Positions 12,285-13,437 of a DNA stretch of 49,704 nt are shown here, one piece after another. The DNA is from a virus (Duplodnaviria > Heunggongvirae > Uroviricota > Caudoviricetes): the IMG/VR virus record IMGVR_UViG_2703718837_000001; one strand, 5' to 3'. Each line of letters opens with the position of its first letter. Within the stretch, counting starts at the first letter, position 1. Both the position numbers and the translations under genes were made by a program. Below the pieces are notes generated by a model. It made no database searches, had not been told where the DNA came from, and saw only the letters and a list, made by a program, of their open reading frames with translations.

Positions 12285-12677
12285 ATGAATTACACTAAAG
12301 CAGTATCCACATCAAAAATATATGATTTTTGGGATACAAGTGATAACATTGTTGGGCGTATAGAGGAGCACAATATGACTAATTATCATTGCATGCCAGA
12401 CCTCAGCCCGGAAGAGATTCGTAAGATCTCTGAAGCAGCCGTGGCGAGTGTCGCTGCAAAAAAAATAGTCACTAACAGCAAGCATATAACTAAAAGTGCA
12501 TCTTTAGCTGGAAAAGTGATGGCTAAACAGGCAAACGTTATCAAGAAACTGTCTGGCACAGGTTCTTCTGCCATTAAAATTAATAAAGCATTTACGGACA
12601 GTGTACTTACGCAAAGCAAAAGTCGAAAATATTTTCAAGAAGCTTTCATACAAGTTCGTAAAACCATCAAGGTTTGA
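12285..12677 (+). CDS. Basic hypothetical protein, AT-rich accessory gene
   Basis: 130 aa; low GC relative to the backbone; followed by a strong terminator. Confidence 0.5.
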   Translation: MNYTKAVSTSKIYDFWDTSDNIVGRIEEHNMTNYHCMPDLSPEEIRKISEAAVASVAAKKIVTNSKHITKSASLAGKVMAKQANVIKKLSGTGSSAIKINKAFTDSVLTQSKSRKYFQEAFIQVRKTIKV

Positions 12678-12698
12678 TGCTTTCATAAAACATGATTA

Positions 12699-12724
12699 AT
12701 GCCCCTTATCGGGGCTTTTTTTTG
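12699..12724 (+). terminator. Rho-independent terminator
   Basis: GCCCC-TTATC-GGGGC followed by nine T. Confidence 0.75.
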
Positions 12725-12735
12725 TTTGGTGCGCA

Positions 12736-13437
12736 ATGATTGAACAGCAAAAGCAATGGGTGTTTACTGAATTAGTAAAAGACCCCAATAACATCGAGCA
12801 ACTAATTTCATACACGATTTACAAAGGTTTCAAAAATGAAATAGCCGATAATGCTCGTAAGATGGGCAAGACTGAAGATGAGATCAATGAGGAGTTAGCA
12901 AAATATCACAACTATTGCATTAGTTCTCAAAAGCAATTAGATGTTTTTAGAGATAAAGCTAAAAACACTCTTGACGCTTATATTTTCACCGCTAACCATA
13001 ACATGATGAAACGGTTTAATGCGGAAATTATTAAAATAAAAAACAACTATGATAAAGAACTTGAACTAGCGCAAAAAAAGTTAAAAATTGCCGAAAAAAA
13101 AGCATTAAATAAGCTGTCCAAAGGTGCGGTTCTCTACAGCCAAAAAATTAAAGAGCCAGAGCATCTCTGGGATAAAATCCTTGATTTATTGTGGAGACTT
13201 ATGAAGTTTCTGTTCTCTGGCGTACCTAAACTTTTTGCTACTGCATTTTCTGTTGGTCTAATGTTCACAATTTATACAGCTTTCGACGAAGATGCCACGA
13301 CAGGTTTGAGAAAAGGGCTATATAAAATTGTTGATATGACTGTACCAGGAAAAGATATTCACGAAACCACAGATAATATAACCAATAGTGGCACAGAAAA
13401 AATGTCATCTTCAAATTCCCAAGCGCAGCAAGGATAG
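12736..13437 (+). CDS. Hypothetical protein with coiled coil and C-terminal transmembrane helix, AT-rich accessory gene
   Basis: 233 aa; hydrophobic segment LFATAFSVGLMFTIYTAF; Lys-rich helical N-terminal part; no good RBS. Confidence 0.5.
   Translation: MIEQQKQWVFTELVKDPNNIEQLISYTIYKGFKNEIADNARKMGKTEDEINEELAKYHNYCISSQKQLDVFRDKAKNTLDAYIFTANHNMMKRFNAEIIKIKNNYDKELELAQKKLKIAEKKALNKLSKGAVLYSQKIKEPEHLWDKILDLLWRLMKFLFSGVPKLFATAFSVGLMFTIYTAFDEDATTGLRKGLYKIVDMTVPGKDIHETTDNITNSGTEKMSSSNSQAQQG

Follow-up and report, generated by a model that had tools for sequence, protein, structure and literature searches.

A low-GC two-gene cassette with a conserved internal terminator occupies the gp5–dbn junction of a P1-like phage-plasmid: a candidate membrane-acting exclusion module

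The IMG/VR virus record IMGVR_UViG_2703718837_000001 (49,704 nucleotides; this whole stretch is referred to below as the window) is a P1-like phage-plasmid, as established by comparison with the P1 annotation and by BLAST. Directly behind gene 5, with which the late baseplate/tail operon 26-25-7-24-6-5 ends according to the P1 annotation, it carries a discrete unit made up of a leader, a small gene that we call A, an intrinsic terminator and a larger gene, B. The first-pass annotation, made from the letters of the window, had reported two low-GC genes here, at 12285–12677 and 12736–13437, and both open reading frames (ORFs) are indeed present on the plus strand. The guanine-plus-cytosine (GC) content is likewise as low as described, at 36.2% for 12252–13461, compared with 49.2% in the baseplate operon and 46.5% over the window as a whole. 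The features of the locus are as follows.

11638–12270, plus strand: baseplate gene 5 of P1, which closes the late operon; 98–99% identical to P1 up to 12251.
12252–13461, no strand assigned: the non-P1 segment (the cassette), 1210 bp, delimited by BLAST breakpoints against P1, junction sequences and composition.
12285–12374, plus strand: promoter/leader, most likely non-coding, matching the upstream block of six related cassettes.
12375–12677, plus strand: gene A, 100 amino acids, isoelectric point (pI) 10.2, start set by homologues.
12701–12723, plus strand: intrinsic terminator between A and B, stem GCCCC/GGGGC, loop TTATC, T8.
12728–12731, plus strand: Shine–Dalgarno sequence GGTG of gene B, part of a TGGTGA motif conserved in the alignment.
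12736–13437, plus strand: gene B, 233 amino acids, with a conserved helical N-terminal domain, a coiled coil and a predicted C-terminal membrane helix.

Between 11000 and 15500, similarity of the window to P1, P7, SJ46, RCS47 and other P1-like phages (98–99% identity) is confined to two pieces. In the BLAST comparison with P1, homology ends at 12251, 19 nucleotides short of the gene 5 stop, and restarts at 13462, within the 3′ end of dbn. P1 itself has, after gene 5, a 46-bp spacer with a bidirectional terminator and, on the opposite strand beyond it, dbn-ban-trnI-tciCBA, followed by upl-plp, two tRNAs and dmt. The cassette stands in for 86 bp of P1, including the bidirectional terminator between gp5 and dbn as well as the 3′ end of each flanking gene. 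The last six codons of gene 5 (from 12252) derive from the swapped-in segment, giving the C-terminus ...AAQVRIDKT here versus ...AAQVSVDKA in P1, and the last ~10 codons of dbn are also unlike P1. Because the 3′ ends of both neighbours were exchanged along with the spacer, the event resembles homologous recombination involving a diverged P1-like relative; judged from these junctions, the pattern of arrival fits allelic exchange and not site-specific insertion. An Rfam scan of 12000–16000 gave no match inside the cassette.

Gene A was first called as an ORF of 130 amino acids starting at 12285, a reading that probably overstates its length by 30 codons. In 14 loci, the homologue starts at a methionine equivalent to ATG 12375 (MTT.RRMPALSPEEIRKIS...), and most database entries of A are 100 amino acids long (cluster P0034), beginning at this internal ATG. 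An invariant GAGGAG stands ahead of ATG 12375; ATG 12285 is without a ribosome-binding site. Since, in addition, 12285–12374 aligns with non-coding upstream DNA, A is most likely a 100-residue protein. The basic nature of the product claimed in the first-pass annotation stands (pI 10.2 for the 100-residue form, 9.8 for the 130-residue form), while its length does not. The freed leader contains an extended −10-like TG (12341–12342), TAACAT (12344–12349) and the Shine–Dalgarno sequence GAGGAG (12362–12367). These elements belong to a block common to six related cassettes, AAAAATAT...TGnTA(G/A)AC(T)...GAGGAG...ATG, that resembles an extended −10 promoter. No inverted repeats were found upstream of A in the window allele. 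A second allele, found in locus L007 on a Klebsiella P1-like plasmid (and also in L009 and L014), has a palindrome with 12-nucleotide arms, AAAATATGCAAA/TTTGCAAATGTT, over the presumed promoter (L007, 7556–7584), and this palindrome could be an operator.

Only the two ends of the A protein are conserved: an N-terminal helix, MPxLSPEEIRKIS..AVA.VAA.KIVT, and a C-terminal helix, SVLSQS..R.YFQEAF..VRK. The middle is variable and modelled with low confidence. AlphaFold2 produced helices only, with a predicted local distance difference test (pLDDT) score of 64 and a predicted template modelling (pTM) score of 0.23, and no stable fold of A on its own. In two A homologues, P0248 and P0250 from Enterobacter and Serratia, the C-terminal motif QKSLAGS.LSQSEGRN is present in tandem, in two to three copies. 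The repeated motif looks like a repeatable binding peptide. A corresponds over its full length to PHROG 34496 (E 2.2e-75), whose function is unannotated, and has no match in Pfam, NCBIfam, PADLOC or the PDB.

The terminator between the genes, also pointed out in the first-pass annotation, consists of a hairpin at 12701–12715 followed by eight T residues at 12716–12723. A hairpin with a T-run lies between the two genes in 16 of the 18 related loci, with stems that differ from locus to locus and show some compensatory changes; its presence at the same position with varied stems makes it more than a chance match. From the T-run to the ATG of B there are 12 nucleotides in the window and 6–25 nucleotides to the start codon of B across the terminator-bearing loci. 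Such a gap leaves no room for a B promoter past the terminator, so B must depend on read-through. On the upstream side, P1's own gp5 terminator has been replaced, so that the cassette terminator also ends the baseplate late operon, and since the window has no terminator between gp5 and A, late transcripts must run into A. The arrangement is that of type II toxin–antitoxin (TA) modules, with two adjacent co-oriented genes, A upstream and, in the same 16 loci, the terminator in between. We infer that A is made in large excess over B. This gene–terminator–gene layout, kept down to ~22% protein identity, is the distinctive feature of the cassette and an unusually clear case of hard-wired unequal expression.

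An alignment of 30 sequences delimits a helical N-terminal domain of B at residues ~8–95, in which Y29, K30 and K33 do not vary among 94 diverse members. The AlphaFold2 model (pLDDT 72 overall, >90 for residues 10–130) has short helices at 9–13, 20–42 and 47–63 and a long helix or coiled coil at 65–137. An amphipathic helix (144–160) leads into a conserved, single hydrophobic helix at ~158–184 (nucleotides 13207–13287; FLFSGVPKLFATAFSVGLMFTIYTAF), which contains one lysine and one proline. For the transmembrane helix that the first-pass annotation had proposed in the C-terminal part of this 233-residue protein, AlphaFold2 predicts a helix at 164–183, with modest confidence. Past it come a short conserved segment, TGLRKGLYK.VD.TVPG, and a disordered, variable tail. 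B corresponds over its full length to PHROG 25194 (E 1.6e-124), again of unannotated function. Its 33 close cluster representatives are all from Enterobacterales. A profile search of 1.84 billion representatives extended the family to 211 clusters at 50% identity (E ≤1e-3), all 170–250 residues long and of the same layout. Named members come from Escherichia, Klebsiella, Pantoea, Serratia, Dickeya, Pectobacterium, Cronobacter, Rahnella, Providencia, Phytobacter, Vibrio, Shewanella and Ferrimonas, and all are annotated as hypothetical.

A small same-strand ORF (60–138 residues) precedes B in all 18 loci examined. Its homology to A is clear in the Enterobacterales loci; the four that are most distant show only a motif-like resemblance, consisting of an N-terminal 'P-L-S-x-x-E...I' and a basic C-terminal helix. 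The order of A, terminator and B is kept down to 22–30% protein identity across Enterobacterales, Vibrio, Shewanella and Ferrimonas. The elements that carry it are diverse. Diverged Klebsiella and E. coli P1-like plasmids have it at the same gp5–ban site. A Pantoea chromosomal island has it flanked by a type I restriction–modification system plus a PifA-like KAP NTPase and, on the other side, by AbiH plus a TIR-effector-like gene. A Dickeya integrative and conjugative element (ICE) has it adjoining ccdAB, ArdC and Shango SngA, and in a Rahnella island it adjoins Lamassu LmuACB. In a P2-like prophage it lies between the replication gene A (gpA) and the portal gene, that is, in the gpA–gpQ interval known as a defence hotspot (Rousset et al. 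2022, PMC9122126). The gene that follows A and B there (L022, 7653–9080, plus strand; 475 amino acids) gives a weak match to HEC-07 (E 8e-8) and is a second candidate defence gene. Other copies are found after the tail-fibre genes of another P2-like prophage, between mor and the late genes of a Mu-like prophage on the opposite strand, in a lambdoid Shewanella prophage, beside the integrase of a Vibrio island and, together with RhuM, in a Providencia islet between housekeeping genes. Further loci lie beside umuDC, an acyltransferase (Acyl_transf_3; O-acetyltransferase) or a glycosyltransferase (Glyco_transf_25). In the window, the next intact gene past the cassette, 0.7 kb away, encodes a solitary pPIWI-associated nuclease.

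Among P1-like elements the cassette is rare. It is missing from all 18 P1-like phage records (P1, P7, SJ46, RCS47 and 14 others), and no record of the phage collection holds the segment, even at low stringency. By contrast, 17 PLSDB plasmids, pHYEC7-mcr1 among them, carry it at 98–99.6% identity. P1-type gene 5 occurs in ~481 of 5426 complete E. coli genomes. The window's allele is present in 10 of these ~481 and a second allele, with a B only ~49% identical, occupies the same site in 4, so that ~97% lack the cassette altogether. One of the 4 copies of the second allele is interrupted by IS1 (NZ_CP182160.1, 89791–91768). The two alleles differ by ~50% in protein at one and the same P1 site, with flanking DNA that is ~98% identical. 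A survey of P1-like phage-plasmids described eight variable regions, tciABC included, and remarked on their low GC (PMC9603915); none of the eight is the gp5–dbn junction, which is documented here as an allelic cargo slot. Ten of 485 gp5 matches are chromosomal, and one cassette copy, at 4933498–4934670 of NZ_CP080139.1, sits on an E. coli chromosome of 5.5 Mb, which suggests an integrated P1-like element.

The first-pass annotation had placed the two genes at the start of a variable stretch holding gene relics and an insertion sequence (IS). Relics, foreign DNA and an IS do lie downstream, but the cassette arrived separately: on E. albertii plasmids the window's allele is located between gene 5 and an intact dbn-ban-tci, which makes the cassette independent of the downstream deletion and IS and rules out a single insertion comprising all three. 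The cassette has also travelled outwards, since copies on the Pantoea chromosome and the Dickeya ICE still have, ahead of A, a remnant of the 3′ end of gene 5, indicating that P1-like elements exported it. Taken together, presence or absence among close relatives, a GC content of 36% versus 49% in the adjoining operon, an internal terminator and the recurrence of the intact unit in unrelated mobile elements confirm the earlier suspicion of horizontally acquired cargo. With 10 + 4 of ~481 genomes and none of the 18 phage records, A and B are not conserved core genes of P1-like phage-plasmids (Punavirus). We conclude that the cassette is a horizontally exchanged accessory unit (a "moron") of a previously undescribed family.

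As to function, we tentatively, and with less than even confidence, favour a membrane-acting phage-exclusion or abortive-infection module, as the first-pass annotation had also suggested, and would give it TA-like logic. Defence-rich neighbourhoods, among which we count the pPIWI-associated nuclease gene in the window, and the predicted membrane anchor of B are consistent with such a role. In outline, abundant A would be provided by transcription from the extended −10 promoter of the cassette, joined during lytic growth by the P1 late promoter that precedes the baseplate operon. Most transcripts would end at the hairpin, and B, made only through read-through, would be scarce. The C-terminal helix of B would insert into the inner membrane as a tail anchor, with the N-terminal domain and the coiled coil left in the cytoplasm. 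A, being small, basic and largely unstructured with two conserved helices, would bind B and restrain or regulate it. The A:B balance would shift when another phage infects or when the element is lost, and freed B might then oligomerise through its coiled coil and either compromise the membrane or block phage development.

A more specific version of this scheme, which we regard as very unlikely, would make the terminator itself the sensor. A phage that suppresses termination or rewires host transcription would raise B to harmful levels, with A buffering the ordinary leak; possible triggers include antitermination factors, modification of RNA polymerase or loss of coupling with A translation. 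If true, this would be a defence triggered by terminator read-through and not by recognition of a phage protein or nucleic acid.

A number of observations weigh against the exclusion or abortive-infection reading. The interaction between A and B is putative. The cassette promoter was not flagged by a simple sigma-70 consensus scan and is placed in the window solely by alignment with relatives. Membrane anchoring of B and its topology are model predictions, and the best 19-residue Kyte–Doolittle window of B, at 1.47, is only moderately hydrophobic. The association with defence genes comes from about a dozen sampled loci, without an enrichment statistic, and elsewhere the cassette occupies ordinary moron sites (behind tail-fibre genes, beside umuDC or an O-acetyltransferase) that are also home to exclusion, conversion and unrelated cargo. 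On a few plasmids B is split or disrupted by an IS, which argues that it is dispensable; the fragments are 78, 116 and 125 residues long (cluster members P0191, P0193, P0194 and P0197). Searches of Pfam, NCBIfam, PADLOC and PHROGs with A and B matched only the two unannotated PHROGs. Against PADLOC-DB 2.0, A had no match and B reached E 0.004 at best (PDC-M64B/C, LeoBC), outside any known defence family. The structural model of B has no informative neighbour, and BFVD gave no significant match. Literature searches by accession found no mention of the family, and its accessions are absent from the DefensePredictor supplements. Of the profile and structure searches that the first-pass annotation had proposed, the profile searches placed both proteins in unannotated families, and none brought up a known defence, toxin or exclusion protein.

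Weak matches obtained along the way were not taken as kinship. Searching 94 diverse B relatives against Pfam and PADLOC gave only scattered sub-threshold or coiled-coil matches, those recurring in PADLOC being LeoBC (32 of 94), JetC, LmuB and ZorA, which we read as coiled-coil composition. The PDC-M64B/C lead did not recur among the 94 and was dropped; a literature search on PDC-M64 was empty. Profile matches to PDB sequences, namely AopB (0.007), YaxA (0.03) and a Na/K-ATPase fragment (0.003), are weak and do not indicate homology.

The exclusion or abortive-infection reading and its rivals are not cleanly separable, and the same layout can be read in other ways. A small upstream gene, a larger downstream gene and enforced unequal expression would also suit a pure addiction module, in which B is a membrane toxin, A a labile antitoxin in excess, and the function the stabilisation of the plasmid-prophage or island. 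The predicted lack of structure in A, the palindrome over the promoter of one allele, as in autoregulated TA operons, the ccdAB next to the Dickeya ICE copy and the residence of the window copy on a low-copy plasmid-prophage all point the same way. Yet neither protein matches a known toxin or antitoxin superfamily in Pfam, NCBIfam, PADLOC or the PDB, the window allele lacks the palindrome, and P1 already has phd-doc. Many copies, moreover, reside in defence islands and chromosomal prophages, which have less need of stabilisation. We therefore consider pure addiction rather unlikely, bearing in mind that TA and defence roles are compatible with each other. Superinfection exclusion without killing, with B in the inner membrane blocking DNA entry or another early step and A serving as accessory or regulator, draws on location: the cassette is prophage-borne and, in both P1-like and P2-like elements, comes after baseplate or tail genes, and such sites are classic for exclusion morons. 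The predicted membrane anchor of B and the short conserved segment beyond it would agree with this. However, about 155 of the 233 residues of B, with most of its conserved sequence, are presumed to be cytoplasmic, as is its presumed partner; no similarity to known superinfection-exclusion proteins was found in PHROGs or BFVD, and the cassette is also present in non-phage islands. On balance this explanation seems to us unlikely.

That the cassette serves the phage that carries it, in lytic growth or through lysogenic conversion (for instance by timing lysis, by modifying the envelope or in a virion-associated role), is suggested by the lack of a gp5–A terminator in the window, through which A would be co-transcribed with the baseplate operon, and by conversion-type neighbours in some loci (Acyl_transf_3, Glyco_transf_25). 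This is distinctly improbable given that ~97% of gp5-carrying E. coli genomes, and the fully lytic-competent P1, do without the cassette, and that copies of it are found on an ICE and on chromosomal islets devoid of phage genes. Nor does B resemble a holin: it is too long, its architecture, with a soluble N-terminal part of 155 residues, is wrong, and no lysis gene is adjacent in the window. Finally, the occasional split or IS-disrupted copies might suggest hitch-hiking DNA with functionless ORFs. B of the window and of the E. albertii allele, the closest pair, differ by only 8 non-synonymous and 6 synonymous changes, too few to inform on this point. Conservation of proteins, gene order, ribosome-binding sites and terminator over the taxonomic and identity range given above makes this last alternative scarcely credible.

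By none of the testable criteria does the cassette belong with RexAB, the transmembrane (TM) systems of the P2/P4 hotspots or SpoIISA/SpoIISB. PHROG 25194 and PHROG 34496 are the same families as in other phage genomes, and no Pfam, NCBIfam or PADLOC model covers them. The P2 gpA–gpQ hotspot houses several TM systems, including RT-nitrilase + 1TM, HAD-like hydrolase + TM and TIR + TM (Rousset et al. 2022, PMC9122126). The cassette resembles these in having a relative in the same hotspot, in its small size and in a predicted single-pass membrane protein as likely effector. Unlike them, it has no enzymatic or nucleotide-signalling partner, A being a helical/disordered protein of 100 residues, it matches no Rst model in PADLOC, and its conserved intergenic terminator has no described counterpart there.

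Outside that hotspot, RexA and RexB of phage lambda, both prophage-encoded, pair a cytoplasmic with a membrane protein; their ratio matters and they act through the membrane, RexB having four membrane helices. The cassette may work in a similar way, but it shares neither sequence nor fold with RexAB, the sizes differ, and in RexAB the sensor gene comes first; it is not a member. Bacillus SpoIISA is a membrane toxin with a cytoplasmic domain, neutralised by the small, basic and disordered SpoIISB. Here too the working may be similar, but SpoIISA has three N-terminal membrane helices, the toxin gene precedes that of its partner, no homology was found and the taxa differ, so that membership is again denied. 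HK97 gp15, P22 SieA and T4 Imm are superinfection-exclusion proteins, prophage accessory membrane proteins encoded beside tail genes. In contrast, B is predicted to be mostly cytoplasmic, has a putative dedicated partner and occurs outside phages as well; no homology to the three was found.

Should the cassette prove protective, it would represent a compact two-protein defence without a recognisable enzymatic domain, one that prophages of the P1, P2, Mu and lambda types carry and that is exchanged with defence islands. The question has some practical bearing, as P1-like phage-plasmids are vehicles of mcr-1 and extended-spectrum β-lactamase genes, and pHYEC7-mcr1 carries the same cassette. Should it confer no phenotype, it would be an ordinary uncharacterised moron.

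The DNA past the cassette has its own history. The relic of dbn lies outside the cassette; with it begins another rearrangement, independent of the first, whose features are the following.

13444–13959, minus strand: dbn relic (glycosyltransferase, 3′ half), 96% identical to P1 dbn over 13462–13959; Glycos_transf_1, PHROG 2518, C-terminal part only.
13960–15573: second non-P1 segment, replacing the 5′ half of dbn, ban, trnI, tciABC, upl, plp and two tRNAs.

With this replacement ban was lost, leaving the phage-plasmid without a DnaB-type helicase of its own. The segment contains, at 14169–15104 on the minus strand, the solitary pPIWI-associated nuclease mentioned above (311 amino acids; pP_pnuc_1 + pP_pnuc_2; PADLOC Aga_Nuclease, E 2e-62), with no Argonaute-sized gene near it. 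Further on, within the P1 tRNAs–dmt region, an IS200/IS605-type element at 15909–17237 encodes TnpB only (391 amino acids, 15949–17124, minus strand) and no TnpA. Just outside its end, 15855–15946 on the minus strand gives a weak Rfam match to tmRNA_permuted (29.9 bits versus a gathering threshold of 47, E 0.002), which is probably a chance match or an IS-end structure. The P1 Dmt homologue at 17489–20530 on the minus strand, a C5 and N6 DNA methyltransferase, is 1013 residues long versus ~754. An intein-like insert (Hint_2 + LAGLIDADG_3, residues ~77–400), lacking in pHYEC7-mcr1 and in P1, splits its C5-methylase part.

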